DNA of 64,000 nt from Candidatus Micrarchaeota archaeon (GCA_021802765.1 JAJZRI010000001.1:211509-275508), one strand, 5' to 3'. Shown: positions 27,270-44,298, numbered from the stretch's first letter. Notes: generated by a model not told the origin, from the sequence alone. Numbers and translations: made by a program.

Positions 27270-27376
27270 TTCATTGCGCAATAGCACTGAGTGCATGGTT
27301 GCATCGTGGTCGGGATATAGCAAGTTTAAGCATTCGCAGAAGGTTTTCCCACATTTGTTAAATATGTTGAATAAAT

Positions 27377-27916: not shown

Positions 27917-27940
27917 TCGTTTAGCAGTAGTATTAGTGAA

Positions 27941-28360
27941 TTGATGGATAATGTAGCTGGAACAAGCAGGATGGCACGGATATACATAGCGACAGGGTTT
28001 CTTTACTTCATCATAGGCACGATTCTTCTGGCACTCAATCTCTCTAATCTTATTGCCATAAATAGGGATCCGATATTCATACTGCTGCTATACGGTTTTG
28101 TTGCCCAGTTGATTTTCGGTGTTTCTTATATTTTTGTGCCTGGCGTCTCTAGGCACAGTGGAACAGATTACAGAATCATAATAGCAGAGTACATTCTTCT
28201 AAATATTGGTATAATAGCATTTGAGATAGTTGCACTTAGTGGCCAAAAGGACGTTGCAGTGCTCATCACAGGACTGATTGTATTAATTGTGGCAGTTCTG
28301 CTGCATGCGACCAACATATGGCGCACGATAATTGGTAGGGAGAATAAAGGCACTGTCTGA
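27941..28360 (+). CDS. Four-TM membrane protein
   Basis: Four hydrophobic helices, LYGFV..LIFGV.Y..VP motif. Confidence 0.65.
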   Translation: MMDNVAGTSRMARIYIATGFLYFIIGTILLALNLSNLIAINRDPIFILLLYGFVAQLIFGVSYIFVPGVSRHSGTDYRIIIAEYILLNIGIIAFEIVALSGQKDVAVLITGLIVLIVAVLLHATNIWRTIIGRENKGTV

Positions 28361-28480
28361 TTCAAAGTATTAAATGCCATTGAGAGTGTCCTTGCAGGAT
28401 CTGGTGGGTTATGCGAATCAGATTACAAGATGGCCATCACGTAAGAAGGATTCAAAAAGTCTACACGTTAAATAGCATAT

Positions 28481-29725
28481 ATGTTCTTGCCCTTATCAGT
28501 CATAGTATTGGCAATGTCTTTTGTGCTGGTAGCTGTAAGGCAGGTAGGCAGAGTCAGATTGCAGATATGGCAGATAATCCTTGGTGGAGCAGTAGTTGTG
28601 ATACTGACAGGGCAGATATCTGTAACTGCAGCAATATCCTACATAGACCCCACCATCATAGTCTTCCTAATCGGAATCTTTATTCTTGGCGAAGCACTTA
28701 CAAGGAGCGGATACATACAATATCTTGCTTACAGGATTTTTAGGCATTTTAGATCTGTGGATAGCCTAGTACTTGCAATCCTTTTCTCGATGGGATTGGC
28801 ATCCATGTTCATGCTTAACGATACTATGGCAATCATAGGCACGCCAATAATCATGCTCTTTGCGATTAAAGAAGGCATAAACCCAAAGCTCATGCTGTTG
28901 TGCCTTGCATTTGCGATAACAATAGGCAGCGTTGCAAGCCCCATAGGCAATCCTCAGAATTTGCTTATAGCTTCAAGCGGTTTTGTTAAGTCACCGTTTG
29001 CAACTTTTTTCTCTAGCCTTTTGATACCGACACTGATAAATCTTTTCGTGACTTATTTAGTCCTTAGGCTATTTTTCAGAAGCGAGTTCCACAATAAACA
29101 GCTTATCCATAGCCACGTAAGGATAAAGGATAAGGAACTAGCCAGACTTTGCAACTTATCTCTTGCCTTGCTTGGCATTTTAATTCTTTTTTATGTCGTA
29201 ATTGAGATTTTTGGTTTTATGCATGGCCTTAGTTTTGCATACATTGCAGTTATTTCGGCTTTGCCCATAGTGCTTTTCAGCAAGCAGAGATTTTCCATAG
29301 TCAAGCAGATAGATTGGTCGACAATAGTGTTTTTCATGGCCCTTTTCGTTCTTGTGGGCAGCGTATGGCAGTCGGACTTTTTCCAATATGCTACAAATAG
29401 CCTGCATCTTGACTTAGGTTATGTTCCGACAGTACTGCTTTCCAGTGTTATAGGCAGTCAGTTTATTTCAAACGTGCCAATGGTGCTACTCTATCTAAAA
29501 CTTTTGGCATATGTGCACATCACAACAACAACTGCAATGGCACTTGCCGCAGGAAGTACAATTGCTGGTAATCTATTCATTCTGGGAGCCGCAAGCAATG
29601 TGATAATAGTACAAATGGCAGAGAAGAGATACAACAGTTCCCTGTCGTTTTTTGATTTCGCAAGGGTCGGCATTGTTGTTACAGCACTTAATGTACTCAT
29701 ATACTGGATATTCCTGACGGTATAG
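28481..29725 (+). CDS. ArsB/NhaD/CitMHS-superfamily anion transporter
   Basis: NDT, IGSVASPIGNPQN, SNVP, STIAGNL..LGAASNVI; multi-pass TM. Confidence 0.88.
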   Translation: MFLPLSVIVLAMSFVLVAVRQVGRVRLQIWQIILGGAVVVILTGQISVTAAISYIDPTIIVFLIGIFILGEALTRSGYIQYLAYRIFRHFRSVDSLVLAILFSMGLASMFMLNDTMAIIGTPIIMLFAIKEGINPKLMLLCLAFAITIGSVASPIGNPQNLLIASSGFVKSPFATFFSSLLIPTLINLFVTYLVLRLFFRSEFHNKQLIHSHVRIKDKELARLCNLSLALLGILILFYVVIEIFGFMHGLSFAYIAVISALPIVLFSKQRFSIVKQIDWSTIVFFMALFVLVGSVWQSDFFQYATNSLHLDLGYVPTVLLSSVIGSQFISNVPMVLLYLKLLAYVHITTTTAMALAAGSTIAGNLFILGAASNVIIVQMAEKRYNSSLSFFDFARVGIVVTALNVLIYWIFLTV

Positions 29726-29829
29726 ATTTAATTTTATAGAGATTTAACTTCTGATTGTTTAATGCATCGTAATTAAATAGCAACATTAGGTGCATTGTCA
29801 TTTTTATTGGTATTTGACTTACGCCATGC

Positions 29830-32214
29830 TCAGATGCGCTTGAGCACAGCAAGCTTGACTGCATCGTTTACGAATAATGAAATCAGTGATATCAAAAATA
29901 CTGCTGCTATTGGCGCGATGCCTATTTCAGGCATAAGTATCCCTAAATATGCCATTGCAGTCCCTACTATTATTCCTGCTGAAGATGCTATAACAAGGAA
30001 TGCGCTTGGTGCTGACTTCCAGAACGCTCGCTTCTCTCTTAGGTTTATTACGGTGAACTTGTCTGTAACGTTCAGGAGCAGAAATACCATTGTTGGGAAC
30101 TGTAGGCGGCTAAGACCCAACAGGCCGAACCCGATAGGTATAAGTGCAAGTGCTTCGACAAGTAGGAACGCACCAACCGAGCCAGATAATATAAGGAGAT
30201 TGCGCACATTCCACACGTCTGGCTTGATCGAATATCCGGCATTATCTGTAGATATGGATATGTTTACCATGTCATTGGTAAATATCAAAAGTATAAGAAG
30301 GAATGCAGTTATTGGTATAAAATGCAGTGACATGAAGGTTATGGCTATGAAACCAACTATCTGAAACACCTTGGAGACCTTGGCCATTGCGTAAGTTGAC
30401 ATCCTCTCAAATATCCTCCGGCTCTCCTTAACGGCATCCGCTATGACCCCCAGACCATCTCTGGTAAGCACCAAGGCGGCAGCGCTCTTGGCCACATCAG
30501 TGGCATTGGATACGGCTATACCAACCTCTGCCTGCTTTAGTGCGGGAGCGTCGTTAACACCATCTCCAGTCATTCCTACAATATACCCTTTTGCCTGCAG
30601 CGCCCTTACCAGCGAGTACTTGTCCTGCGGATACACGTTTGCAAATCCACCAGCAGAAATGGCATTGAGCTCAAGGAGGCTCTGGTCGCGACCAACTCCA
30701 GAGGACATATCCACTATAAGCCCTGGTAGTCCGACTTCTTCAGCTATGTGCTTGGCAACGGCTGCATTGTCACCAGTCAGCATCTTTATTGATATGCCGA
30801 GCTTTGACAATTCTAATACCAGATCCTTGGCATCCTGCCTAGGCTTGTCATAAAGGGCCACGAGCCCGTCAATGACCCAGCTATCGCCAGGTTTTTTTAC
30901 TGCAACCATTATCGGCCGCATGCCCCGAGACGCCAGTTCATCTGCCTTTGAACTAATCTCAACCAAACTGGAACCGTTAAGACCGGCCGCTTTTAGAACA
31001 GATACGACTGCGCCCTTCATAACCTCGTATTTGAATTCGCCACCCATTACTGCGGCGGTGCACTTCGTTTCTGGACTAAAGGGCGTGAAGCTGGACTGAA
31101 TTCCCGGATGGATGCCAAGGCGTTCGGCGTAATCCAAAATGGCATTGTCCATAGGATCGTTGTCCTCCCTCCGCGACGCCTCAGCGGCATGCTTGAGAAC
31201 TGATGCCACATCAGCAAGCACTGGCACTACCTCGCCCACTGTTATTCGGTTTTCAGTCAGTGTGCCAGTCTTATCTGCACACAGTATGCTCATTGTCGCA
31301 GTACTCTCTATTGCTTCCAATCTAGTTACAAGTATCGACTTTTGCGCAAGCCGCCCTGTGCCCAGTGCCATCGCCACGGTAAACGCTGCCTCTAAAGCTA
31401 CAGGTACCGATGCTATGAATACCACGAGCAGAAAAGGCACCATGATTGCAAGCGACATATGCAGCAAAAAGAACCCATACAGGAACATAACGGCAATAAC
31501 CACCAGGTCGCCTGCTACAAGATATTTCACTATGTGCATTATTGCAATTTCAAGATGCGATTTTGGCGATGCCTTCTGCACTAGTCGCGCAGTTTTTCCA
31601 TAAACTGTCCCGTATCCTGTGCCGGTGACTATGCACGTTGCCTCTCCACGGCGCGCAATTGCGCCCTGATATACTGTGTCCCCTATGGATTTTTCTATTG
31701 GCAGCGACTCGCCGCTTATCACCGATTCGTCCGATTCGAATATTTCAGATTCGATTATCCTAGAATCCGCGGGTATTATGTCGCCTAGTTTGATCCGGAT
31801 AATGTCTCCAGGAACAAGCTCTCGGGCAGGCAGAGTGGTCCATACGCCATCCCTTAGAAGCCTTGCCTTTGAGGCCAACTGGTTCATCAGAGCCTGGACA
31901 GATACGTCGGCCTTGTACTCCTCCACGAAGCCGACTATGGAATTGAACACCAAAAGAGCCACGACTATGTAGAAGTCTTGCATATGGCCAAGCACATAGG
32001 AAAGGATAATTACAAGCCACAGTAATGCTTGCACCGGGCCATAGAACTTCCTTGCGAATTGATAATAGTAGTTGGGCTTCTTTGCTGTTATCTCATTGTA
32101 TCCATATTTGGCAATTCTTAACCTAGCTTCAGCAGAACTTAGTCCGGTTTTGCCAGTGCCGGCATCTGAGACAGCTCCATCTGCGCCAATCGGATGAAAA
32201 TCACTATCTGCCAT
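29830..32214 (-). CDS. P-type ATPase, plasma-membrane H+-ATPase (P3A)-like
   Basis: DESVISGES, DKTGTLT, KGA, MLTGD, TGDGVNDAP, SRRIFERM..Y, M6 NDMVNISISTD. Confidence 0.9.
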   Translation of the reverse strand: MADSDFHPIGADGAVSDAGTGKTGLSSAEARLRIAKYGYNEITAKKPNYYYQFARKFYGPVQALLWLVIILSYVLGHMQDFYIVVALLVFNSIVGFVEEYKADVSVQALMNQLASKARLLRDGVWTTLPARELVPGDIIRIKLGDIIPADSRIIESEIFESDESVISGESLPIEKSIGDTVYQGAIARRGEATCIVTGTGYGTVYGKTARLVQKASPKSHLEIAIMHIVKYLVAGDLVVIAVMFLYGFFLLHMSLAIMVPFLLVVFIASVPVALEAAFTVAMALGTGRLAQKSILVTRLEAIESTATMSILCADKTGTLTENRITVGEVVPVLADVASVLKHAAEASRREDNDPMDNAILDYAERLGIHPGIQSSFTPFSPETKCTAAVMGGEFKYEVMKGAVVSVLKAAGLNGSSLVEISSKADELASRGMRPIMVAVKKPGDSWVIDGLVALYDKPRQDAKDLVLELSKLGISIKMLTGDNAAVAKHIAEEVGLPGLIVDMSSGVGRDQSLLELNAISAGGFANVYPQDKYSLVRALQAKGYIVGMTGDGVNDAPALKQAEVGIAVSNATDVAKSAAALVLTRDGLGVIADAVKESRRIFERMSTYAMAKVSKVFQIVGFIAITFMSLHFIPITAFLLILLIFTNDMVNISISTDNAGYSIKPDVWNVRNLLILSGSVGAFLLVEALALIPIGFGLLGLSRLQFPTMVFLLLNVTDKFTVINLREKRAFWKSAPSAFLVIASSAGIIVGTAMAYLGILMPEIGIAPIAAVFLISLISLFVNDAVKLAVLKRI

Positions 32215-32421
32215 CAATAATAAACTGCAGACCAAGGTATAAAACAATTCCACAAACCAGATGGAACCAGAAGTCCGATACGTTTTTATGATTTTTATGA
32301 GCCATATTCACTATTTAGGCACTTCGTCGCGACGAACGCCACGTCGCATCAAGTATTTTTCTTCCCAAGTGTACGTTTACTATAGAATCAGCTTAAACCC
32401 TGACGAGGTTAGGGGGATGCT

Positions 32422-32541
32422 CTAGGTATTCATAGCCAGTTTTGCCATGCGGTATCCAAGCGGCATGAAAGGGCAGCGGTGCCCGTGAAATTCCCATGCC
32501 CATTCTGGAAGTCCGCCATATCTGTTTATATCGTTTTTAAT
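32422..32541 (-). pseudogene. FmdE-family N-terminal fragment
   Basis: Hand translation [39 protein letters not shown]; FHGH.CP...G.R signature; GGTGA SD followed by ATT instead of ATG. Confidence 0.7.
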
Positions 32542-32564
32542 GAGTTCACCTTAAGCATATACAA

Positions 32565-33554
32565 TTATGATGCGCCTGCGACGGATCTGCCTTTTTTGGG
32601 ATTAAGCATTTGTTTAAGAGAACCTAACAATACGATTATAAACACGGCAGTTAGGCACACGTATAAAAACAATGAAATCGTTTTGAATGGGCTGAAGAAA
32701 TCAGACAAAGAGGCCGTGCCCAAAGTGAATGCTGCTGTGGGGAATACGTAACTCCACCAGCCTAGGTTAAATTGAAAACCGGACTTGAGATATCTCCTAA
32801 AGAAAAGCAGGTTGACCCCTATGGCCCAAATTCCGAATCCCCACAAAGCCGCTCCACCTAAGGCCCCCAACGGGCTCAGGTTCATTTTAAGCAGGATTCC
32901 TGCGGAATTGGAGATTTTCATAAAGTCAACGATCAAAATCCCTATCGGGGCTAAAAGAATGTAATTCGTAGGCGCAAGTTCTACAGTGGGCAACGTATGG
33001 CTGACTAACCGGAAAAAGAGCATGCCAAGGATTAACAGGAAAAGCATAGTACCAATGCCAAAGAAAAAGAGTGCGAATACCATAGTGACTGCGCTAACAG
33101 GGTACAGGAGCACCGCATTGGTGACAAGAATAGTGGCTACTGGCGTGATAAACCATCCGCCATGCATCTGGTCTAACTTAATCTTGATATTTGAAAAAAA
33201 GTGGTATGGCAGATAGATTGCAAGAGCAAGGATTAAGCCTGCGCCATAAACAAGCAAACCCAGATCTATGAAGCTAGGTATAATGTTCCAGCATAAGATC
33301 GCCAAGATTACTGCAGAAATGGGTTGAAGGGCATAGAAGTTTCACAGCAATGTGTGCTTCAGCTCAGTTTTGACGATTCCAGGATGAAGAACAAGCTTTA
33401 CAAGTAATATCGCAGAAAATAACAAGAAGAAAAATACCAAAACCCAGGTTAAAGGAATTACCAGGAATGGAAGGAAGGTCTTTGATGCCAATGCGAATCC
33501 TCCTGTTCCAAGGATTGAGCCAAAAGCCATTATAGAGAATTTACTGGTATCCAT
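32565..33554 (-). pseudogene. TDT (TehA/SLAC1/Ssu1) family transporter with one in-frame TGA
   Basis: MAFGSILGTGG...ELKHTLL-TGA(33342-33344)-NFYALQP continues in frame into HGGWFITPV...WWSYVFPT. Confidence 0.85.
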
Positions 33555-33576
33555 AATACAAACCTTATTGTATGGT

Positions 33577-33840
33577 TTAAACCCTTTTTCCAAACAGTCT
33601 AAGTACGTGCCTGTCACTTATCTTGTAAATCACCTTTTTTCCTTCCCTTCTGTTTGAGAGTATACCCGCATTTGCAAGGTACTTAAGCTGCAGTGAAACG
33701 GTGGGCTGCGCCCTGCTTACAAGCTTAGGCAGTTCGCATGCACATCTTTCCTGCTTGACCAATTTCGATACAATGTTGTACCTCGTCTTGTCCCCAAGCG
33801 CCTTGAAAAGCACGTAATTGTGCTGTTGTTTAGCGTTCAT
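33577..33840 (-). CDS. ArsR/SmtB family regulator
   Basis: FKALGD.TR..I, ERCACEL, QPTVS.QL..L, RREGK...Y. Confidence 0.92.
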   Translation of the reverse strand: MNAKQQHNYVLFKALGDKTRYNIVSKLVKQERCACELPKLVSRAQPTVSLQLKYLANAGILSNRREGKKVIYKISDRHVLRLFGKRV

Positions 33841-33900
33841 AAATATATTTATAAGCATAAATATATATAAATTTTGTGTCTATACCTATGCGGTGAACGT

Positions 33901-34254
33901 ATGAGTGGAAAAATAGCAATAATCATAGCTTCAGATTGGGATCAAAAGCTCAAAGTGACCTCGGGTCTTCATCTTGCTAAGCGCATATATGATGCGAGAC
34001 AGGAAAACGGCATAGATGCATTAGAGGTATTCCTTTATGCAGGTGGCTCAAAGCTACTGCAATCCTTGCCAGAAGGCTTCGTAAATATACTGGAAGAGCT
34101 AAAGCAGGGCAACATCCTTGTAAAGGTATGTACGACGGAGGCACGGGCGTGGAATCTTGAGGAAAGCGCAAAGAAATATGATATAGTCCTAGAATTTGCG
34201 AGAGACGCATTCTCAAGATACGCAAGGGATGGATTTACTGTTTTAACCTTTTGA
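33901..34254 (+). CDS. DsrE/DsrF-like protein
   Basis: Short alpha/beta protein: KIAIII, EVFLYAGG, KVC, C-terminal GFTVLTF. Confidence 0.7.
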   Translation: MSGKIAIIIASDWDQKLKVTSGLHLAKRIYDARQENGIDALEVFLYAGGSKLLQSLPEGFVNILEELKQGNILVKVCTTEARAWNLEESAKKYDIVLEFARDAFSRYARDGFTVLTF

Positions 34255-34271
34255 AACCATGAAGGCATGGC

Positions 34272-34511
34272 GTGGTTCCTAGGAGACCTGTTGGTGAAGT
34301 AGCCAGAAACCAACTTTCAGACCAATTGAAGAAGCTCTCAGCAATGGGCGGCACTGTTAAGAGTCTCGGAAAAATAGGACTTTTACCAAAAGAGGATCAG
34401 GTTATAGAACATTATGACAACGCTATCACTGACTTTGTAAATGGTAAGCCTGACGAAGAATCCGGTAGGCTGATTTTCAAGTGGTTAAAAAGATGTAATG
34501 AGGCCATTTAA
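34272..34511 (+). CDS. Small hypothetical protein or gene remnant
   Basis: 79-aa ORF with GTG start, no motif. Confidence 0.3.
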   Translation: MVPRRPVGEVARNQLSDQLKKLSAMGGTVKSLGKIGLLPKEDQVIEHYDNAITDFVNGKPDEESGRLIFKWLKRCNEAI

Positions 34512-34643
34512 TAGCGCCCATACGAATATAACCTGAAGCGCATCGCCCGATGCGGGGATCGAACCTGCGACATCCTGGTTAACAGCCAGGCGCTCTACCG
34601 ACAAGCAAGCCTTTTCATAACGAGCTTTTGCCTTGGCAACCAT
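34485..34643 (-). CDS. Integrase N-terminal fragment int(N)
   Basis: ATG 34643: MVAKAKARYEKACLS then reads through att as VERLAVNQDVAGSIPASGD, the same frame as int(C). Confidence 0.75.
   Translation of the reverse strand: MVAKAKARYEKACLSVERLAVNQDVAGSIPASGDALQVIFVWALLNGLITSF
34541..34599 (-). repeat. att site (partial tRNA-Asn copy)
   Basis: CATCGCCCGATGCGGGGATCGAACCTGCGACATCCTGGTTAACAGCCAGGCGCTCTACC, identical to 43538-43596. Confidence 0.97.
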
Positions 34644-34699
34644 GCAATCGAACCCTTGTTTTCAAAAGAAAATACGCAATTTAGATATAAATATGCGTG

Positions 34700-35030
34700 A
34701 GGTTCGATTTGATGCGGATAAACGAACCCCGACTTTAGCCAAACTTGTGTCTTTAGCCGATTCCCACGAAATGGCTAAAGAAAGATGACGACGAAGCTCA
34801 AAAACCCTGTGTTTTTGTCGGGAGGCTTCTTTACACAAGTTTCGCGTACGGCTCAGCATCAAGCCCGCTACGGCCGCTTCGCGGCCTACCGGCCATAGGC
34901 CTGCGGGCACTACTCCAAAATCGGGTTCTAGGCCACTTTTGGGTGGGGGCAAAAGTGGCCGCTTGAAGAAAAGGTACCTTAAACTGCTCGGTGGCGAGCT
35001 TGAAGGCGCATTGGCGCCGCACGCCCCTCT
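34700..35030. other. GC-rich, palindrome-dense non-coding region (origin candidate)
   Basis: GGCCACTTTTG-8 nt-CAAAAGTGGCC (34931-34960), CTTTAGCC..GGCTAAAG (34751-34780), GGTTCG..CGAACC, clustered GGCC. Confidence 0.5.
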
Positions 35031-35059
35031 GGCCGCATGGCCGAGCTGGGCGAAAGGAA

Positions 35060-35269
35060 TTATTTGTTTAACGGTTTAATAATCACTTTTACGGATTTAC
35101 CAACCAAGCCTTCTAGCAAGGAACTGCGTATATTTATACCGCCGTACGTATACTTGTGTTCTCCGGATTCCCTACGTCGAATATTACCTCCTTTGAGTTG
35201 CCTTTTGTATGTGAACTCAGTTACATTTACCGGATAAAATTCGAACTCATCTTTTTGGTATCTTGCCAT
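35060..35269 (-). CDS. Small basic hypothetical protein of the element
   Basis: 69-aa ATG ORF divergent from the cargo operon. Confidence 0.6.
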   Translation of the reverse strand: MARYQKDEFEFYPVNVTEFTYKRQLKGGNIRRRESGEHKYTYGGINIRSSLLEGLVGKSVKVIIKPLNK

Positions 35270-35372
35270 ATTATCCCTATTCTATAGGGCGACGTAGTTT
35301 TAAAAACTATTCGGACTAGTTTTTTTAAGAGGATTTTTTCGTACAAAAGATTTAATAAGGGTCACGGAGTAG

Positions 35373-35732
35373 GTGTTAATAGGGATGGTTATGGAATTAA
35401 TAAAACAGCCGGGGTCGCAGGAGGATTTAGTTGCAAGTTTATTGGTAGGCATTTCAGATGGATGGAAGATTGGTGAAGTTGCGACTAGCACTTATAGAAG
35501 ATTGCCCGATCCGCAGCCAGTATATATAGACTCATCAAATATGAGGCGCATGCATCATGGAGAAGCAGGCATGTGGATCGTGACAGCCAGCACTTTGCTT
35601 GGTCTTGTTGCATATAGTTATGCAGATGGGCAGGATAAGGAAATGGCGATGCAGATTGCAGGAATGGGTATTGGATTTGGTGCACAGTTGATCTGGGATG
35701 ATAAAGAAGACCATAACGAATGGTTCCATTAA
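35373..35732 (+). CDS. Membrane protein with HHG and G.G..L..DD motifs
   Basis: RMHHGEAG-TM, GMGIGFGAQLIWDD. Confidence 0.65.
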   Translation: MLIGMVMELIKQPGSQEDLVASLLVGISDGWKIGEVATSTYRRLPDPQPVYIDSSNMRRMHHGEAGMWIVTASTLLGLVAYSYADGQDKEMAMQIAGMGIGFGAQLIWDDKEDHNEWFH

Positions 35733-35767
35733 TTGGTGATAGAATTCCTAAATATAATATAATTTCT

Positions 35768-36118
35768 ATGGGGGAAATGGCGCGCATAGGAGAGTGGGTA
35801 GAGGTATTCAGAGCGCTAATTGCACTTGGTATTCTTGGTTATGTAGCAGTTACAATATCAAGTGTCATACCTATTGGGCCATTCTTGCAGATATTGCCTT
35901 TGTTCTATTTTGCTATAACTGTTGCTATAGTGATTGGAGTACTGGAGGTGCCTGATCATGGAACATTGTTTACAATTGGGTGGACTTTTGCCTCTTTGCT
36001 GCTAGCCGGATCTGGACTTATAAGCAGATGGGAGGCACTATTGGATCTTGTTCCGATAGCCTTAATTATATGGAATTATTTAGATGATTCGGGTGGATTG
36101 AATGGTACATACCTCTAG
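35768..36118 (+). CDS. Four-TM membrane protein
   Basis: Almost entirely hydrophobic; overlaps next gene. Confidence 0.65.
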   Translation: MGEMARIGEWVEVFRALIALGILGYVAVTISSVIPIGPFLQILPLFYFAITVAIVIGVLEVPDHGTLFTIGWTFASLLLAGSGLISRWEALLDLVPIALIIWNYLDDSGGLNGTYL

Positions 36119-36671
36119 ATGTTCGCGTGCTAGCAGCACGCATTGTAGTTGCTCGTGCGGCGGTGCGGCCCATGGTGGGGGTGGAGGGATAGTATCAATT
36201 GCTGAGGCATCGAGTGATAGAGACGTACCAGAATATAGGAAATTCTTTGGTAATTCTCTTGTTCAAGCAGCATTGACACATGCTTGCATGGCTGGACTGA
36301 CAGTAGTTGCGCCTGGTGCAGGGTTGGCGCTGGCTACTGCATATACAACATACAACTACTCAAACTTGGGATACACCATGTTTAAGGCATATAATGAATT
36401 CCAAAATGGAAACGTTGCCCAGCGCAGAGATTCATTAAGGACTATAACTACAAACGTAACAAGTTTTGCGGTGGGAGATAGTTCGGATAAGGCTGCAGCT
36501 TACATAGTTGACAAAGCCAAGGCTAGCGGATATGTAAAGGAATTAGCTGGGAAAAGTGGGGTGGAAGAAGTCATCCTAACAGACATGTTGGAAGGAACAA
36601 CCTCACAGGCAATAAATAATGGTTTCACAGAACTGGCCAGATTTGGTGCAGGTAAGGTGTTTGGTGCTTGA
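36102..36671 (+). CDS. Hypothetical protein with N-terminal Cys/His metal-binding motif
   Basis: HTSRCSRASSTHCSCSCGGAAHG followed by a hydrophobic Gly/Ala segment. Confidence 0.7.
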   Translation: MVHTSRCSRASSTHCSCSCGGAAHGGGGGIVSIAEASSDRDVPEYRKFFGNSLVQAALTHACMAGLTVVAPGAGLALATAYTTYNYSNLGYTMFKAYNEFQNGNVAQRRDSLRTITTNVTSFAVGDSSDKAAAYIVDKAKASGYVKELAGKSGVEEVILTDMLEGTTSQAINNGFTELARFGAGKVFGA

Positions 36672-36962
36672 ATGGATGAAAAAACTTTTCAAATCATAGG
36701 AATAATAGCGGCTCGTAAGGGCGCTTACTATACGCTAGTTAGAAATGAATTTCTTAGGCAGTTAAAGAAGCAGAAGAAGGCGATTAGTGATGATGAGGAT
36801 CAGGAAATGCGGGCGCGTTTGAGAAGGGCCATAGCACAATTACCTAATGAGTTATTCTTAGGCGTACAGGAAACAAGCAATATAGATAGGAGCCTCGGCC
36901 TAGATCAAATAAGGCTTGATACAAAAAGGATAGCCAAGGAAATAATCACAGGACTCATTTAG
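36672..36962 (+). CDS. Small helical hypothetical protein
   Basis: ATG directly after the previous stop codon. Confidence 0.65.
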   Translation: MDEKTFQIIGIIAARKGAYYTLVRNEFLRQLKKQKKAISDDEDQEMRARLRRAIAQLPNELFLGVQETSNIDRSLGLDQIRLDTKRIAKEIITGLI

Positions 36963-37003
36963 ATTACAGTTAGGGTAAAATAGCTTATCATTTAAATGGA
37001 ATC

Positions 37004-38716
37004 ATGGGTTTTTTAGGGGAAGGGATACATAGTAATGCCGTGAGCAAGGTTGCTGCCTACCAAATACCACTCATAAGTAATGCTAGAATGCCACTTGTCC
37101 GAAAAAGATGCGGCGTTCTGATTAAGTCCGCTATCAAAATACCTGACTATCTAAAGAAAAAACCAAACCAAAACCTGCTTATATGCGGAACCACTGGGCA
37201 GGGCAAGTCCAAGCTAATGCGGCTTGCTCTTGAGATAATGCCCAACCCTAAAACAATCTTCTCGTACAAGGAGAACGACGAATACCTACAAATTGAGGGC
37301 AACTTCATAGCCGCTGAGCGCAGCTTGCCAAACCCATTCAATGACCCGGAGGCCTTTACTGATGCCTTCGCTGTGGCCTTCAACCTCCAATCTGAGGGGA
37401 TACAGGCCTCTACGGCCATGTCCCTTGTAAGCAGCCTAGCCAAGGAGAGCAGGACTTGGGCTGATTTCATATCCAACGCCAAAAAGCACGCCGCGAAGGC
37501 TCGAGACGCAAACGTACGCTCTGCCACAAACTACCTGCTCGAGAAGATTAAGGCGCTTACCTACGACTCCAAGCAGATAGAGCTCGACCTTGGCAAGACC
37601 AACGTGCTCGACATGAGCCTGCTCAACGATGACGCCAAGACCTTCTACTCCGAGCTCTTCCTCAGGCAGATATACGCCGGCTTGAAGCGCCGCAGGGGCG
37701 CCGATAAGGTCATCGTGTGCGTGGACGAGGCCCATAGGCTTACTAGGAACGTCCAGAGCAAGCGCCAGAGCATAATCAACGAGATGAGCAGGGAGATAAG
37801 GGCTTTTGGGATGCTCTGGACGGCTACGCAGAACCTCTCCGACATACCCGACCCGCTTAGGAACCAGTTTGCCACCCAGTTCCTGTTCAGCACCACATCC
37901 GAAGGGGACATGCGGGCGCTTGGGCAGATAGACAGGGACTTGGCTAGGTGCGTATCCGAGCTTAGGAACCACGAGTTTGTTGATGCAAAGCATGAGGACG
38001 TGCACAAGTCCATTGGAATATTTAGGGCAGACATAAGCTCGCTGAAAGAGCGGGACCTTAGCAGTTTAAGGCCTGCTGAAACGGTGCAGGCCAAACCAGT
38101 AACATTAGAGGTGCCAGAAGGAAGGCCAACAACCATGCTACACGCAGCAATGTTAGCAGTATATGAGAATCCAGGAGCTGGACTTGGGAAGATAGCTAAA
38201 TACCTTAAAACTAAGGGTTGGATAACAAGCGATCCTACAATTTACGGCTCTAAAGATAGGAAGGGTGTGCTTGACAATCTGGTAAGCTTAGGTTACGCAA
38301 AGGTAGATGGCTCGGGCTACAAGCTGACCGAAAAGGCATTGTGGTGGATTGATGCAGAGATACTTGTAAAGCGTGCTAAGAACGTTGGTTCTGAACTGCA
38401 CATGCAGCTTATGAGAAAAACGGTAGAAAAACTACACGAAGAGAATATGCTTGTTGTAATACCGGAGAGAAAAGATGTGCCAGATTTGATAGCTTACCCC
38501 ATGTCTAAAGGAAACAAGAAGTACCTTTGGGATGACAAGAATAGAAAGGCTTATGAAATACAGACTACGGCTAGAAAGAACAATGTGCTTGTCAATAAGA
38601 AAAGAAATGATAGATTTAAACTATCTACAACTTGGATTGCGCACGATGAAGACATGCTTGAAGAAATAGAGAGGTTGACAGAAGGAAAAGATAAATATAT
38701 GCTGATTATGGTGTGA
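37004..38716 (+). CDS. HerA/VirB4-like ATPase fused to wHTH-like and PD-(D/E)XK-like domains
   Basis: NLLICGTTGQGKS, CVDEAHRL, REIRAFG, ATQN; C-terminal SELH...PDLIA...AYEIQT. Confidence 0.8.
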   Translation: MGFLGEGIHSNAVSKVAAYQIPLISNARMPLVRKRCGVLIKSAIKIPDYLKKKPNQNLLICGTTGQGKSKLMRLALEIMPNPKTIFSYKENDEYLQIEGNFIAAERSLPNPFNDPEAFTDAFAVAFNLQSEGIQASTAMSLVSSLAKESRTWADFISNAKKHAAKARDANVRSATNYLLEKIKALTYDSKQIELDLGKTNVLDMSLLNDDAKTFYSELFLRQIYAGLKRRRGADKVIVCVDEAHRLTRNVQSKRQSIINEMSREIRAFGMLWTATQNLSDIPDPLRNQFATQFLFSTTSEGDMRALGQIDRDLARCVSELRNHEFVDAKHEDVHKSIGIFRADISSLKERDLSSLRPAETVQAKPVTLEVPEGRPTTMLHAAMLAVYENPGAGLGKIAKYLKTKGWITSDPTIYGSKDRKGVLDNLVSLGYAKVDGSGYKLTEKALWWIDAEILVKRAKNVGSELHMQLMRKTVEKLHEENMLVVIPERKDVPDLIAYPMSKGNKKYLWDDKNRKAYEIQTTARKNNVLVNKKRNDRFKLSTTWIAHDEDMLEEIERLTEGKDKYMLIMV

Positions 38717-38719
38717 ATT

Positions 38720-39991
38720 ATGGAACTTAACGATAGAGTAAAGGAAACTCTGAAATTACTTGAAGGTCGTATGGGGCAATATTCAAAATGTGAAGCGGCA
38801 TTTTCTATAGCTAAAGTGAATAATGTTAATAAAATACATAATGGGGTAATAGTTTTCTTTCATGAAAAAGACCAGATTCCGAATAAGTCACGTCTCAATT
38901 ATAAAAACTTAATATTAGATCGGCAGATTCTTAGCGCTGATGAAGGAAAGAAAATGATATATGAGCTTATAAATGATAACAAGATTATGTTGCCAGAACT
39001 TGGAGAATTCGCATTAGAAGCAAATAGCGTAGCGGATATGGGTGGGAGAGACTACGAACCGGCCTATCATCCGTGCGGATTTGCATATGATAGATTTGGA
39101 TGGCCAAACAGGCGCATTGAGTATAGTATAAAAACTAATTCAATGTCGTTTGATAATCTAGAAGTTGTTAGTACTAAGAGCCCCCTTTATCTTAATGCAG
39201 CATATGCAATTGCAGATTTCATGAATGCATCTCACCCATATAATCCCGTTACATCGAGAATTGAAATAATAATACCAGATTATAGGGCACGGATAAAGAA
39301 GGCGCGAATATCAGATGGCAAAATAAAGTTTGAGATAGAAGAAAGAGAAACTAGAGAGAGTAATCTCCAATTTAAGTATTTCTTGCAATCTGGTTCTGAA
39401 AGCAGACCTGGAGAAGTAGCTATAGAGAATAATAGTGCAACAACAAGTTACCCTAATGATGTAACACTCTTAGAGGCAGTAATCCTTGACATTTCAAAAG
39501 ACGAGCCCATAGACACCAAATATGTATATCCATTTAGATTGGAATCGTGGCAAGAAGTGGATCCGGAAGCTTATGAGATATTAATAGACAGATTAATTAA
39601 GGATGGCGAAAATGATAAAGTAGAATTTAAGAGGGAAATTAAAGATACTGGTGAATTCTTAGAGACTGTCTCCTCATTTTCAAACTCTTCTGGAGGAGTT
39701 ATAATATTGGGAATCACTAATAACGGAGAAAAACGAGGTTTTAGAATAAATAAGGATGTTATTACAAATATAATTGCAAGTAATTGTGAGCCTTATCCAA
39801 AATTTGAGATTAAGGAGGTAAAGATAGATACAATAACATTAACTGTTATTGAGATTGATGAAGGGTCTAATAAACCTTATTCTATAAAGGAACGCGGTAT
39901 TTTCATTAGGAAAAATGCCACAGATAGACAGGCAAGTAGGAATGAGTTAGATGACATTATCAAGAATAACAGTTCAAAAGTTGTTATATGA
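38720..39991 (+). CDS. Schlafen/AlbA_2 domain protein
   Basis: C-terminal GENDKVEFKRE, ETVSSFSNSSGGVIILGI, KPY....G.FIR. Confidence 0.85.
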   Translation: MELNDRVKETLKLLEGRMGQYSKCEAAFSIAKVNNVNKIHNGVIVFFHEKDQIPNKSRLNYKNLILDRQILSADEGKKMIYELINDNKIMLPELGEFALEANSVADMGGRDYEPAYHPCGFAYDRFGWPNRRIEYSIKTNSMSFDNLEVVSTKSPLYLNAAYAIADFMNASHPYNPVTSRIEIIIPDYRARIKKARISDGKIKFEIEERETRESNLQFKYFLQSGSESRPGEVAIENNSATTSYPNDVTLLEAVILDISKDEPIDTKYVYPFRLESWQEVDPEAYEILIDRLIKDGENDKVEFKREIKDTGEFLETVSSFSNSSGGVIILGITNNGEKRGFRINKDVITNIIASNCEPYPKFEIKEVKIDTITLTVIEIDEGSNKPYSIKERGIFIRKNATDRQASRNELDDIIKNNSSKVVI

Positions 39992-40410
39992 ACTTTGCAA
40001 ACATTATCGAGGAGGTATTAATTGCTGATTATAAATTAAAGCATAACGATACTGTAAGACAGATAGAAAGCATTTTCAGAAATAATGGTTTCTACACCAC
40101 AAGGGAGTATCCCATTTATAAGATGGGTGATGGCTCTGGAAAGAAAGGAAGGATAGACTTAGTGGCTAGGAAGGGGAGATTCAGGGTGGCAGTAGAGTAT
40201 GACCACCATAAGTTAATAAAATGGAAAAGTTTCCAGAAAATAATCCAAATAAACCCAGAGTGCGCTATTGCAATATCTGGGGATGGAGGTCTTAAAGAAA
40301 ACATAGTAAGGGCATCTCATTATGTAAGAAAACTCAGGCAGCCCCTTTATGTTGTTTCCCTAAAAGAGAAGGCATACACAACGGTAAGAGGCGTGGAGAA
40401 TGACGGATAG
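39988..40410 (+). CDS. PD-(D/E)XK nuclease-like protein
   Basis: REYP...GRIDLVA....VAVEYD. Confidence 0.65.
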   Translation: MNFANIIEEVLIADYKLKHNDTVRQIESIFRNNGFYTTREYPIYKMGDGSGKKGRIDLVARKGRFRVAVEYDHHKLIKWKSFQKIIQINPECAIAISGDGGLKENIVRASHYVRKLRQPLYVVSLKEKAYTTVRGVENDG

Positions 40411-40804
40411 ATTTACGAAGGCACAGAGAAGCTATATCATGTCTAGAATTAAGGGAAAGGGGACGCGCGTAGAGTTGGCAGTAAAGGGAATGCTTGGGGG
40501 ACATTTTACATTCCAGCCCAAGGGCATACTTGGAAACCCTGATTTTGCACATAAGAAAAAGAAAATTGCAATATTTGTTGATGGAGACTTTTGGCATGGT
40601 AAAGAATTTGGGTTGAGACGGAAGAGGTTGCCGAAATATTGGATAGCAAAAATAACAAGAAACATAAGACGGGATCAGGAGGTCAACAAGAAGCTGAAAG
40701 ATGCAGGGTGGAAAGTAGTACGTATCTGGGAAAAGCGGATTGGAAGAGAGCCTAAATTGGTTAAGAGACTCCTAAGAAAGGTTATTAATTTGGAAAGGAA
40801 ATAA
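40400..40804 (+). CDS. vsr: Very short patch repair endonuclease
   Basis: D.FT..QRS.IMSRI, G.PDF, IFVDGDFWHG, W..KI.RN..RD, GWKV.RIWE. Confidence 0.95.
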   Translation: MTDRFTKAQRSYIMSRIKGKGTRVELAVKGMLGGHFTFQPKGILGNPDFAHKKKKIAIFVDGDFWHGKEFGLRRKRLPKYWIAKITRNIRRDQEVNKKLKDAGWKVVRIWEKRIGREPKLVKRLLRKVINLERK

Positions 40805-40810
40805 CCTTTT

Positions 40811-41512
40811 ATGGGAAATAACAAGTATGTTGATTTCGTAGATGATAAATTCTTCTTAGAGTGTGTTAGGGAAGTCTGTGAGGTTTATTATAGGGAGAAA
40901 AAGGAGCTTACTGTAGATAGCCTAAAGGGTAATGGCCTTGACCCTTTTAAAAGCGTGTTTGACATGGCAAATAGGGGCATCAGTTTTGAACAGTGGATGG
41001 AAGAGGAGAGGTCAAGGCAAGAGGATAAGACACTCAATAATAAGATAGGAGAATTCCACCAGAAGCTGCTAGGTGGGGTCAAGGGTTGGACTGACCTTGG
41101 AGTTGGAAATGACACAGAATTGGACCTAAAGAAGGATGATGATACCATATTCATGGAGATAAAGAACAAATATAACACCATCAATAGCGATTCTGGGAAT
41201 AAAGTAAGGGACAAGCTTGGGGATGCGGCAAGGAAGAATCCAAAGGCCATAGTTTATTTTGCATATATCATATCTAAAAAGAATGATTCTGGAGAGAAGG
41301 TATGGAAAAAGAAGGGAAGGGAGACGAATGTTAGGATAAAGAAGATATGGGGATCTAAAGTCTACGCGTTGGTGACGGAGAAGGAAGATGCGCTGAAAAA
41401 GACATGGGAAGCCCTACCCATAGCAATAAACGACTATATGAAAGGAAAGGCAGAAATAAGTGAAGACGACAAAAATAAACTTGTCATGAGCTTTGGCTCT
41501 GTACTTGGGTAA
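40811..41512 (+). CDS. Type II restriction endonuclease, Eco47II family
   Basis: DPFK..FD, RQ.DKT..N.IG.FHQ, D.....EIKNKYNT.NS. Confidence 0.85.
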   Translation: MGNNKYVDFVDDKFFLECVREVCEVYYREKKELTVDSLKGNGLDPFKSVFDMANRGISFEQWMEEERSRQEDKTLNNKIGEFHQKLLGGVKGWTDLGVGNDTELDLKKDDDTIFMEIKNKYNTINSDSGNKVRDKLGDAARKNPKAIVYFAYIISKKNDSGEKVWKKKGRETNVRIKKIWGSKVYALVTEKEDALKKTWEALPIAINDYMKGKAEISEDDKNKLVMSFGSVLG

Positions 41513-42488
41513 CTAACCTTACGGAAAGCGCCTTTACAATCTGATTTCCTATAGCCTTTGCAAAGTTTACAGGCACGGCGTTGCCTATCTGCTTGTATTG
41601 CGATGACATGCCGCCGCAGAATTCCCAGTTGTCAGGGAAGGTCTGTATCCTTGCGTATTCCCTTACCGTGAACGGGCGTGTCTCTTCTGGATGGCAGCGC
41701 TCTGTCTGCTTCTGTGATGGCGATGTCGTAAGCGTCAGGCAAGGCTCATCCCACGAGATCCTTCTAGCCATGCCACGCTTGCCTCCGCCGCTGTAGAAGC
41801 TCTTACCCATGAATTCCTTTTGTATATCAAGTGGGAGGTTTACCCAGCTGCCTCCTGGAGGGACTAGATCAAGCACCTTTTTCCTGTTTTCCGAATACCG
41901 CGTCCCGGAAGACTGTGGCACGTTTGCAAGCGCTTCCTTTAAGGTAACTAGCTTTCCGTATCCGGTAGGGTACTCAAAGTTTATCCCGTCAAGCGTACCT
42001 ATTATGATTATCCTTTTCCTTTTCTGTGGCACGGAATAGTTTACCGCATCCAATATCTTATACTGGACATTATAGCCCAGCGACTTGAAGACATCCAAGA
42101 CTACCGTAAGGGTGCGGCCGTTGTCATGTGTGGCAAGGCCAGCTACATTCTCTGCAATGAACAGCTTTGGCTTGATCTCCTTTACTGCCCTGGCAAACTC
42201 ATAAAATAGCGTGCCGCGCGTATCCTCAAAACCAAGTTTTTTACCGGCATGGCTAAATGCCTGGCATGGGAAGCCACCGCTCACCACATCAGCCTTCATT
42301 CCCGTAAAGTCTATGCCCTTTATGTCACCCAATACCACATTCCAATTAGGCCTATTCTTCCGGAGGGTAGCTGCACAGTCTGCATCAAAATCATTAAGTA
42401 ATATTGCCTCTAGGCCGGCTTCCTCTAGTCCTAGGGCTAACCCACCTGCACCTGCAAATAATTCGACAACTTTAAGCTTATTTTCCAT
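41484..42488 (-). CDS. DNA (cytosine-5)-methyltransferase (Eco47II/Sau96I-like)
   Basis: ELFAGAGG, GGFPCQAFS, ENV, PQKRKR, TRD ARRISWDEPCLTLTTSPSQKQTERCHP, YKQIGNAV. Confidence 0.95.
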   Translation of the reverse strand: MENKLKVVELFAGAGGLALGLEEAGLEAILLNDFDADCAATLRKNRPNWNVVLGDIKGIDFTGMKADVVSGGFPCQAFSHAGKKLGFEDTRGTLFYEFARAVKEIKPKLFIAENVAGLATHDNGRTLTVVLDVFKSLGYNVQYKILDAVNYSVPQKRKRIIIIGTLDGINFEYPTGYGKLVTLKEALANVPQSSGTRYSENRKKVLDLVPPGGSWVNLPLDIQKEFMGKSFYSGGGKRGMARRISWDEPCLTLTTSPSQKQTERCHPEETRPFTVREYARIQTFPDNWEFCGGMSSQYKQIGNAVPVNFAKAIGNQIVKALSVRLVTQVQSQSS

Positions 42489-42647
42489 AGCAAACACCAC
42501 ACTTATGCTACGAGCGCTCCGCTAACAATATTTGGCACCGCAACTCTTATATTACCACCCAGAAACAGAGGCCATTTTGTATAGCGTTGCCCGACGCATT
42601 TTGTATTGTAATTATAGTTCTTTAAAATTAAATATCTTTGCATATTT

Positions 42648-43598
42648 TCACCTTTTGAAACCATTAGACAATGAGCGCAGGTGTGACACCCTATTTTCAG
42701 AGAAGGCGAAATCGATATTCCTGAACAGCTCTTCCTGGTCTTTGCTTATGTAAGTCATGGTTATGTCTGGCCTGGAGTGCCTTGCAAACCTGCTGGCCAG
42801 TACAACGTTGCCGTTTGTGGCCTTGGCAAAGCGTGTTATTGCATAATGGCGCAGGCTATGTGATGTAAGCCTATACAAGCCGCGCTCTTTATGGTCTGAA
42901 TAGGTCTCTTCAGATGTTCCGTACATTTGGTTTAGCCCTGCACTTTGCGCAGATTCACGGAAAACCTTTCTAGCATAGTTGACCTCTACATGCTGTAGCC
43001 TATTGGCATTGTTGTCATGTTCTTTGAAGAAGACATAGCCGTTCGATGCCTTTATTGAGGTCTCATTTTTAGCTATGTACTCTATCGTTTCTTTGAACAG
43101 CGCGACAGGGATGAGCAGGGTATCCATCTTTTTGGCCTTCTCAGTCTCAAGCGTAAGCTCACGCTTATCAAAATCTATGCATGAGATGTGCAATGCGCAC
43201 GCTTCGCCTATCCTTAGGCCTAGATAGGCCTGATACTTGAAAAGCAACCTGAACTTCTCATATGGTACGTTAATTAGGAATTGGCGCAGCTCAAGTTCTG
43301 TAAAACCTTTGTTTATTGATCCGTACTTGGGCGTCTTTCTTCTGCCTTTGAACCTTCTCCCATAGGCCTTATGCAGGATGGACTTCATGTCCTCCAATCG
43401 CTGCTGCGGGGCAGAGTTTGCAAGCGCCTTGAGCTGCGCTGCAAACTGCGCGTAATCGAACCTTGAAATGCTTGTTTCGCTTGCTTTAGGGGAAGGGGTT
43501 TTACCGGAAATGAACCCGATTTTGTCGCCGTAAATTTCATCGCCCGATGCGGGGATCGAACCTGCGACATCCTGGTTAACAGCCAGGCGCTCTACCAC
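42648..43598 (-). CDS. int: Tyrosine recombinase/integrase, C-terminal part int(C)
   Basis: GLRIGE (R), TEKAK (K), HSLRH, ARH, TMTY (Y); 5' end lies inside the att/tRNA. Confidence 0.92.
   Translation of the reverse strand: MVERLAVNQDVAGSIPASGDEIYGDKIGFISGKTPSPKASETSISRFDYAQFAAQLKALANSAPQQRLEDMKSILHKAYGRRFKGRRKTPKYGSINKGFTELELRQFLINVPYEKFRLLFKYQAYLGLRIGEACALHISCIDFDKRELTLETEKAKKMDTLLIPVALFKETIEYIAKNETSIKASNGYVFFKEHDNNANRLQHVEVNYARKVFRESAQSAGLNQMYGTSEETYSDHKERGLYRLTSHSLRHYAITRFAKATNGNVVLASRFARHSRPDITMTYISKDQEELFRNIDFAFSENRVSHLRSLSNGFKR
43538..43596 (-). repeat. att site within intact tRNA-Asn
   Basis: Identical to 34541-34599. Confidence 0.97.
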
Positions 43599-43612
43599 TG
43601 AGCTAATCGGGC
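43541..43612 (-). tRNA. tRNA-Asn(GTT)
   Basis: GCCCGATTAGCTCAGTGGTAGAGCGCCTGGCTGTTAACCAGGATGTCGCAGGTTCGATCCCCGCATCGGGCG; anticodon arm CCTGG-CTGTTAA-CCAGG. Confidence 0.96.
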
Positions 43613-44298
43613 ATTTTGAAGAACGGAAACGGCTCCGCGAGATGTATTATCTTGGCGTACATATATGAATGCTCGCCCATATATTCCGTAAAATCAATTC
43701 GGTTGTCGCTGTATTTATACCTTACGAAGCCTCCGGATTGATTCTTGTCAGGCAATGAATAATAAAGTATCTTATTCTCGTCGGAAAGGCCCTCTATCAC
43801 GTCAAAAGCGCAAAGGACCGCCTTTCCCTTGTAGACAAACGAGTATATTTGAGGTATGGTCTCTGTGCCTGATGCCTGTATGAGCGCGGCCGTAACAAGA
43901 TCGTGAACGCTCGAGAGCTTTGCGATTGAGGGGATTTCCTTGTCCTTGGGCTTTGCATCGGAGATCTTCGCGTCATCTATGCAGATTATGTTGATAGCAT
44001 TGCTGCCTTCCTGCCTCTCGCCAGATACGAAGTGCGAATTCTCCTTCTGCGAAGGGGATGAGGGATAGGTGTAGCCTATTACGCGCTCGCTCTTCGGGTT
44101 TGATACGTAATAGGCAATGGCGCTCTTGCCTATCTCTTCGCCTAGCGCAAATATCCTATATGCTCCGCCAGATTTAAATGATACGAGCTGGGCGTTGGTG
44201 TAGTCGTAATTGCAGACGTATCTGGACAGGTCATCTAGCGATTCGAGCTTTACGAATATAAGGCTCTTTGGACGCAACTGCCGCTTCTTGCTTTTCAT
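43603..44298 (-). CDS. Hypothetical protein (two internal repeat-like halves)
   Basis: 231-aa ORF; KL.S..DL occurs twice; stop codon lies inside the tRNA 5' end. Confidence 0.7.
   Translation of the reverse strand: MKSKKRQLRPKSLIFVKLESLDDLSRYVCNYDYTNAQLVSFKSGGAYRIFALGEEIGKSAIAYYVSNPKSERVIGYTYPSSPSQKENSHFVSGERQEGSNAINIICIDDAKISDAKPKDKEIPSIAKLSSVHDLVTAALIQASGTETIPQIYSFVYKGKAVLCAFDVIEGLSDENKILYYSLPDKNQSGGFVRYKYSDNRIDFTEYMGEHSYMYAKIIHLAEPFPFFKMPD

Follow-up and report, generated by a model that had tools for sequence, protein, structure and literature searches.

A tRNA-Asn-integrated element of a Micrarchaeota archaeon whose integrase gene is probably split by its own attachment site

Results and Discussion

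The genome of a Candidatus Micrarchaeota archaeon of the DPANN group (GCA_021802765.1, referred to as G000; 872 kb in 17 contigs, 81% complete) harbors, in the 3' part of a tRNA-Asn(GTT) gene, a recently acquired integrative element of 8,997 bp. The element is located in a stretch of 64,000 nucleotides (JAJZRI010000001.1:211509-275508, i.e., G000:C6:211509-275508), referred to as the window, whose positions are used throughout unless a contig is named. The analysis of the two ends of this element strongly suggests that its attachment site (att) lies inside its own integrase gene, which would be split on integration and rebuilt on the excised circle. In the circle, the 59-bp att would connect a promoter, an ATG and the 14 following codons with the 315 codons that remain, and the product would be an integrase of 330 amino acids (aa). 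Integration would rebuild the tRNA gene and would leave the larger part of the integrase gene, int(C), beside it with neither promoter nor ATG, while the promoter, the ATG and the first codons, int(N), would be placed 9 kb away, at the other end of the element.

Attachment Sites, tRNA Target and Borders of the Element

Two direct repeats of 59 nt, 100% identical to each other, are located at positions 34541-34599 and 43538-43596, with a start-to-start spacing of 8,997 nt, exactly as reported in a preliminary description of this DNA. No third copy of att was found in the whole genome when up to three mismatches were allowed, and the 22-nt core of the repeat has two matches in the window, against none expected from 100 shuffles. 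The copy on the right (attR, 43538-43596) consists of the 3' 57 nt of the tRNA gene plus 2 nt; the tRNA-Asn(GTT) gene itself (43540-43613, minus strand) is the intact target, called by ARAGORN and scoring 70.1 bits on the Rfam tRNA model, and its locus is syntenic in related genomes. The distal copy (attL, 34541-34599) is recognized by Rfam as a partial tRNA (34.2 bits). In the Rfam scan of positions 34000-44000, tRNA was the sole type of match.

The borders of the insertion were defined by a survey of 30 tRNA-Asn loci in 41 related genomes (locus L199 comes from a genome flagged as unpublished). G007, a genome of the same genus, matches the right flank of the window with 95.5% identity along 10,180 nt, as far as the end of att, and the 28 nt that follow its tRNA-Asn/att are those found to the left of attL in the window. 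A second genome of the same genus (G003) is likewise empty, the 17 nt behind its tRNA-Asn gene matching the sequence to the left of attL. G007 and G003 are, thus, empty sites with exactly the predicted borders; the empty tRNA-Asn loci that the preliminary description had proposed to look for exist and share the same junction, and both the recent gain of the element and its Micrarchaeota-like host, also anticipated there, are borne out.

An integrase gene lies behind tRNA-Asn in only 2 of the 30 loci, namely, the window and G006, another genome of the same genus. G006 harbors a related element at the same tRNA gene, with an integrase and an ATPase about 75% identical to those of the window, which argues for repeated, independent insertions. 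The genes on the right side are syntenic with tRNA-Asn, an ORF (open reading frame) of 277 aa being present in 28/30 loci and one of 231 aa in 26/30. The last 11 nt of this latter ORF (43603-44298, minus strand), to which no function is assigned, overlap the 5' end of the tRNA-Asn gene; both the ORF and its location beside the tRNA gene are kept in these 26 loci.

On the left side, the 1,241 nt preceding attL have a match in one genome of another family (71% identity) and none in any genome of the same genus, so that the empty sites were located through the tRNA gene instead. In the close relative G007, 3.7 kb of unrelated sequence take the place of the 7.3 kb to the left of the element (27209-34512), and part of this 7.3-kb region matches a genome of another family at 71%. 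The genes of the region, named by eye, comprise a DUF488-like ORF, an ArsB/citrate-carrier-like permease, an 807-aa P-type ATPase, a TehA-like ORF, ArsR and a DsrE-like ORF. The region forms a variable island of its own, next to the element, at this tRNA gene.

The Split Integrase Reading Frame

The int(C) part is an ORF of 316 aa (42648-43598, minus strand) that encodes a tyrosine recombinase (PF00589, 1.7e-14) and lacks an ATG and a promoter of its own; as previously described, it opens at a GTG located inside the tRNA-Asn gene. The catalytic set R-K-HxxR-H-Y, already recognized as intact, corresponds to R129, K154, H247, R250, H274 and Y283 (numbering of the 316-aa ORF), all of which are invariant in an alignment of 31 sequences. 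At the opposite end of the element, int(N) (34600-34643, minus strand) consists of an ATG and the 14 following codons and runs in frame into att, a reading that was compared with the other frames across the family (see below). The ATG at 34643 (minus strand) encodes MVAKAKARYEKACLS, after which att is read as VERLAVNQDVAGSIPASGD, in the frame of the 316-aa ORF. Hence att is read in one and the same frame at both ends of the element, and the predicted product of the circle has 14 + 316 = 330 aa, in full agreement with the preliminary description. A TATA-like box, TTTATAT (34685-34691, minus strand), separated by 41 nt from the ATG of int(N), is the putative promoter; the earlier report of such a box is thus substantiated. 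Stretches similar to the region of this box precede unrelated genes in two other Micrarchaeota genomes.

In the structure model of the integrase, residues 1-45 have a predicted local distance difference test (pLDDT) value below 50 and include the att-coded stretch, and the N-terminal domain is reduced to two helices (residues 49-84). The split would then remove a promoter, a start codon and a tolerant tail, and no domain would be lost. Since both the part that is cut off and the att-coded stretch belong to a tail predicted to be disordered, it is most likely that the split switches the expression of the gene off rather than destroying a domain of the enzyme. We infer from the sequence that the element may excise, that the TATA-like box may act as promoter and that an integrase for excision may be available.

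Recurrence of the Split Design in the Integrase Family

A scan of species-representative genomes retrieved 201 relatives of the integrase, nearly all from Micrarchaeota, and the best 80 loci, most of which bear the name of this phylum, were examined. The genome under investigation harbors two further members of the family, 49 and 47% identical to the integrase of the window. One of them is located directly behind a tRNA-Leu(TAG) gene, with a 25-nt repeat 3.7 kb away through which an ATG-started frame runs in the frame of the integrase. This 3.7-kb element (G000:C6:137054-140791; L004, G000:C6:135584-139417) carries HicA/HicB-like ORFs, recognized by eye, a winged-helix-like membrane protein and a copy of the hairpin module described below (C6:138687-138808, minus strand). 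The third integrase (L005, G000:C2:1710-5408) lies behind an intron-bearing tRNA-Trp(CCA) gene that was not called by ARAGORN; the end of a different contig (G000:C16, about 17602-17747) holds its distal att together with an int(N) that is in frame and begins with an ATG, which indicates that the element was broken by the assembly. In all three integrases of this genome (tRNA-Asn, tRNA-Leu and tRNA-Trp), the gene is split in frame by a tRNA-derived att.

A tRNA gene on the same strand is located directly upstream of the integrase in 60/80 loci, with at least 11 different specificities; among the 20 loci without such a gene, five have less than 250 nt of upstream sequence. The frame of the integrase is open into the tRNA gene in 58 of these 60 loci, compared with 41/60 in each of the two control frames. 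The control frames are often open because the distances between the tRNA gene and the match are short; when they amount to at least 30 nt (n = 22), the integrase frame is open in 20 cases and the other two in 10 and 8. In 41/60 loci the interval from the end of the tRNA gene to the conserved core is devoid of in-frame ATG, GTG and TTG codons (an ATG occurs there in 8/60), and this makes a gene start behind att impossible in most copies.

The far end was analyzed in 20 bounded elements (18 of the loci and, from this genome, the two elements with both ends), which are 1.7-9 kb in size and have repeats of 17-94 nt, after discarding L013 and L050, whose direct repeats (14 and 15 nt, respectively) are shorter than 17 nt. 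An ATG upstream of the distal att, followed by a frame open through the whole att, was found in 16/20 elements in the frame of the integrase and in 1/20 in each of the other two; if any start codon is considered, the figures become 17/20 versus 2 and 2. Both the missing start codons near the tRNA gene and the frame at the far end run counter to the possibility, raised in the preliminary description, that the homologous integrases might begin downstream of att.

The far-end peptides vary from one subgroup to another. The 20 codons of int(N) and the 80 nt preceding them are conserved as nucleotides in five tRNA-Leu elements, the ungapped identity of the upstream part being about 0.5-0.9. More distant integrases (38-45% identity; metagenome loci L131-L166) have no tRNA gene called alongside and no tRNA-like N-terminus, and these members may use other targets or the classical arrangement. 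Among the metagenome loci (L087-L166) in which no tRNA gene was called, L088 is a decayed copy of the integrase gene, with stop codons. On the whole, the family is large and Micrarchaeota-wide, and its members target different tRNA genes with the same split design and usually carry the hairpin module.

Classification of the Integrase

The only Pfam family matched by the integrase is PF00589 (Phage_integrase), with 54.4 bits versus a gathering cut-off of 27.1. PF16795 (Phage_integr_3) has no match at E ≤ 10 in any of four family members tested (4/4 match PF00589 alone), nor at E ≤ 1 in a six-frame search of the whole genome, a search in which a control genome passes the cut-off. The integrase of SSV1 (ORF D-335, record X07234), used as positive control, scored 1.5e-61 on PF16795 and also matches PF07935. 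The comparison of the family profile with SSV1 Int by hhalign gave a probability of 0.24%, and this value, together with the absence of PF16795, rules out membership in the SSV/pTN3/pT26-2 integrase family. Among solved structures, the best sequence matches are archaeal XerA proteins (4a8e and 5hxy in PDB), and the top Foldseek matches are IntI4 (2a3v), 3nkh and XerA; SSV1 Int is absent from the six PDB sequence matches at E ≤ 1 and from the Foldseek matches listed. A tblastn search against a phage collection containing SSV1 returned 18 records, bacterial phages throughout. Assignment to the XerA equivalog (NF040815) was considered and rejected (44.8 bits versus a cut-off of 220). The enzyme, therefore, is an ordinary Xer/integron-like PF00589 recombinase that is SSV-like in design alone: of the "SSV1-type" label given in the preliminary description, the int(N)/int(C) partition stands and the enzyme family does not.

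Alternative Explanations and Search for Free Forms

Some observations weigh against a gene that is split on integration. The GTG inside the tRNA gene could in principle start the 316-aa protein while the element is integrated, and the openness of the frame into the tRNA gene is a weak test on its own, given the 41/60 open loci in each control frame. At the far end of three of the 20 bounded elements, a start codon in frame is missing. The int(N) of the window has no comparator, since a comparison of the 801 nt of its far end with 247 other genomes of the order yielded only matches of 26-81 nt, in seven genomes (two of these seven were discarded as int(N) comparators, being promoter-like stretches that precede unrelated genes). 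Moreover, the codon differences in the int(N) of the five tRNA-Leu elements are more often non-synonymous than synonymous, and the conservation of this region may, consequently, reflect a function of the DNA or RNA and not of the peptide. To these points must be added the outcome of the search for free forms. A metagenome scan gave 121 relatives of the integrase; none of the 80 loci kept had the terminal overlap (15-200 nt) of a circular copy, and neither an excised circle nor an attP junction was seen in the metagenome contigs. A scan of IMG/VR with the family alignment returned 101 pattern matches, none of which was a relative.

Sequence words of the element were detected in metagenome runs from mine drainage and sediment, belonging to four studies, and pieces of it that differ by 0-4 letters are found on contigs of three runs (X3, X4 and X7). 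In the unitigs of the likely source run, positions 34570-43567 have a depth of 23.1, the left and right flanks 21.8 and 29, respectively, and the 59-nt att 62.6; the joint 34575 -> 43572 has a depth of 8.49, with only 24 letters on its shorter side.

A classical arrangement of the lambda or pNOB8 type would imply that the integrase is complete when integrated, with a start at a GTG in the tRNA gene or just behind it, and that the ATG-started frame at the far end is a coincidence. It is true that the 316-aa ORF retains every conserved block and all the catalytic residues, with 14 residues missing, that its residues 1-45 are predicted to be disordered and that the control frames too are open into the tRNA gene (41/60 each). 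However, a coincidence would hardly produce an ATG-started frame through the distal att in 16/20 elements versus 1/20 in each other frame, nor a split shown by all three integrases of the genome, and 41/60 loci lack any start codon between the tRNA gene and the core. The 3' processing of tRNA would, besides, strip from the message a start located inside the tRNA gene. This arrangement is thus regarded as improbable. Even less credit can be given to an assembly artefact, i.e., to a free circle or the DNA of another strain misjoined at a shared tRNA-like repeat, even though the assembly is made up of 17 contigs and is 81% complete, and the Logan unitigs break within the 59-nt repeat without any bridge from flank to element. 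The depths of left flank, element and right flank (21.8/23.1/29) in the likely source run are indeed similar, the 59-nt repeat is shorter than ordinary reads, and the same layout is found in 60/80 independently assembled loci, at many tRNA genes and also in single-contig genomes of about 1 Mb, so that a misassembly is highly improbable.

A different possibility is that the architecture is real and this copy has become a fixed, immobile island, serving the host as a restriction-modification/defence cassette. The cargo is defence-like, the split has removed the promoter, and neither a circle nor an empty-site variant has been demonstrated in the runs; furthermore, the other two integrases of the genome are only 47-49% identical and sit at other tRNA genes, which makes their help in trans doubtful. 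On the other hand, the two 59-nt repeats show no difference, the intact ORF of the integrase has an in-frame int(N), an ATG and a TATA-like box, the element is absent from a congener with a 95.5% identical flank, and an element with a 75% identical integrase and a related ATPase occupies the same tRNA gene in G006. An immobile island is accordingly thought to be rather unlikely, and an element that splits its integrase gene on integration and rebuilds it on the circle is the interpretation preferred here.

A Conserved Hairpin Module

A non-coding module of about 130 nt, consisting of three hairpins and acting, possibly, as RNA or single-stranded DNA, was detected with nhmmer and by covariation at positions 34926-35057 (minus strand), with a conserved stretch continuing to about 34678. 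It is present in 38 of the 80 genomic loci, and in 32 of the 53 having at least 2 kb of sequence behind the integrase. In 29 loci the module is located on the opposite strand, 230-2,800 nt behind the stop codon of the integrase gene; in the other nine, including the window, where it lies near the distal att, it is on the same strand, 1.8-9.5 kb from the stop codon.

The alignment of 43 sequences supports the three hairpins with 17 pairs, 15 of which show compensatory changes. The cells of the module are paired in 95.5% of cases, compared with 75.8% in shuffles (0/500 as high) and 30-48% with slid partners, and the pairs are nearly all Watson-Crick, G-U accounting for 5/714 paired cells. The loop of the last hairpin (34932-34960, minus strand; alignment columns 232-263) is C-rich in 7/43 sequences, including that of the window, and the G-rich complement in 36/43; its stem is unchanged between the two forms, as if the loop had been flipped. 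The 370 nt between the 69-aa ORF described below and int(N) have a fold z-score of -4.8. Conservation extends, in a subset of loci, to the stretch behind the module (34678-34884), and a 75-110-nt unit of this stretch is present in 2-4 tandem copies in L024, L035, L039 and L041, an arrangement reminiscent of iterons. A conserved small (four-helix) protein beside the module was considered and discarded, as no conserved ORF exists on either side; the apparent ORF clusters matched in two frames, which points to conservation of the nucleotides.

Gene Content of the Element

Starting from the distal end, the element contains an ORF of 69 aa (35060-35269, minus strand; ORF call) and four ORFs of 119, 132, 189 and 96 aa (35373-36962, plus strand), all without family matches, the 132-aa product being membrane-like by eye. 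They are followed, on the plus strand, by a gene for a 570-aa P-loop ATPase of the HerA/FtsK/VirB4 kind (37004-38716), a 423-aa protein with a C-terminal Schlafen/AlbA_2 domain (38720-39991; PF04326, 1e-20), a 140-aa protein that travels with the ATPase and has no Pfam match (39988-40410), a Vsr very-short-patch repair endonuclease (40400-40804; PF03852, 1e-18; Vsr in PADLOC) and an Eco47II-type restriction endonuclease (40811-41512; PF09553, 1.9e-51; REase_II in PADLOC). A C5 cytosine DNA methyltransferase (41484-42500, minus strand; PF00145, 3.3e-87; MTase_II in PADLOC) precedes int(C). The element is, therefore, predicted to carry a type II restriction-modification system together with a HerA/VirB4-like ATPase. 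The genes for the AlbA_2 protein, the 140-aa ORF, Vsr and the restriction enzyme (38500-41500) have 35-40% G+C versus 44-52% elsewhere in the element, suggesting a separately acquired block of cargo.

The matches of the 570-aa ATPase (CedB, 3.7e-8; VirB4-like; TraC; AAA_22/AAA_10/DUF87; mad8/HerA) are all below the cut-off, and its atlas neighbours are HerA/TrwB-like. It has 116 homologues, of which the named ones are labelled as Micrarchaeaceae, mine drainage or Nitrososphaerota; many homologues are on contigs of 2-10 kb. The window, L008 and L028 have in common the ATPase and the 140-aa ORF, four small elements have HicA/HicB-like pairs (by eye), and the integrase is the only gene common to all 20 bounded elements. 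No capsid gene was matched in Pfam or PHROGs, the sole packaging-like match being a weak one of the ATPase to a terminase PHROG, and no recognizable Rep gene was found among the proteins of the element, consistent with what the preliminary description had stated on both counts. An integrative-conjugative element was considered and rejected, the ATPase reaching just 25-33 bits on the VirB4/TraC/CedB models versus cut-offs of 567-700; among the 10 proteins scanned, there was no match to a relaxase or a VirB6-like protein. A provirus was also rejected, on account of the lack of capsid and packaging hallmarks and of the absence of the integrase family from IMG/VR.

Significance

The split design is known; the enzyme family and the host group in which it is found here are different. 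The occurrence of the same design in another recombinase family, in DPANN archaea of mine drainage and at many tRNA genes argues for the convergent appearance of an "att inside int" arrangement, which is possibly a simple expression switch. A broader and quite tentative hypothesis is that the self-splitting design originated independently in this Xer/integron-like family, which would represent the main vehicle of gene mobility in Micrarchaeota, and that its sole universal partner is the hairpin module, nearly all Watson-Crick and with two "flip" loop forms, which might work as a single-stranded DNA or RNA origin or primer for 2-9-kb elements devoid of Rep and replicating with host enzymes after excision. 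If this were true, these elements would be the smallest self-mobilizing integrative replicons known in archaea.

According to a 2026 survey (PMC13573593), no provirus occurs in 1,356 Micrarchaeota genomes. By contrast, the 201 integrase relatives in species-representative genomes offer a handle on the mobile elements of this phylum; given their defence and toxin-antitoxin cargo, the elements bear on gene exchange among these host-dependent cells.

Comparison with Known Systems

Suicidal, SSV-type integrases were reportedly described by She et al. in 2002. The integrases of SSV1, pTN3 and pT26-2 share with the present one an attP inside the integrase ORF, a gene whose int(N) and int(C) parts come to lie one at each end of the integrated element, and a restored tRNA gene (PMC7253208, PMC8371274), and the 59-bp att is within the 40-60 bp there reported for suicidal integrases. 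The 2021 review (PMC8371274) characterizes the suicidal integrases (SSV, pTN3-like and pT26-2-like) by the PF16795 domain, describes a single evolutionary event and associates these integrases with hyperthermophiles. The enzyme described here, in contrast, has PF00589 only, without PF16795 or PF07935, and no folded domain is cut; int(N) contributes 14 residues before att, compared with about 63 in SSV1 (site 1735-1778 in ORF 961-1968), and the host, which is not a hyperthermophile, is a DPANN archaeon with a small genome from mine drainage. No description of such integrases in DPANN was found in the text of the papers searched, although Table S1 of PMC8371274 may list them in an unnamed PF00589-only family; DPANN and Micrarchaeota are not mentioned in the accessible text of this review or of Badel et al. 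2020 (PMC7253208).

The integrase resembles XerA and the bacterial Xer and integron integrases (4a8e, 5hxy and 2a3v) in its PF00589 catalytic domain and its R-K-H-R-H-Y set. Unlike in XerA/Xer, the gene is carried by a mobile element, is present in multiple copies, targets tRNA genes and is split by its own att, and the N-terminal domain of the product is reduced.

The cryptic integrated elements of Thaumarchaeota, described by Krupovic et al. 2019 (PMC6563490) as tRNA-targeting elements of 2.6-98 kb with the integrase as sole conserved gene, are similar in being small and tRNA-targeting, in the variability of their cargo and in lacking viral hallmarks. A single case of an SSV1-like split integrase, that of NitEve-E3, is reported among them. 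The elements described here, on the contrary, follow the split design as a rule throughout their family, which belongs to another phylum, relies on another type of integrase and carries a conserved hairpin module.

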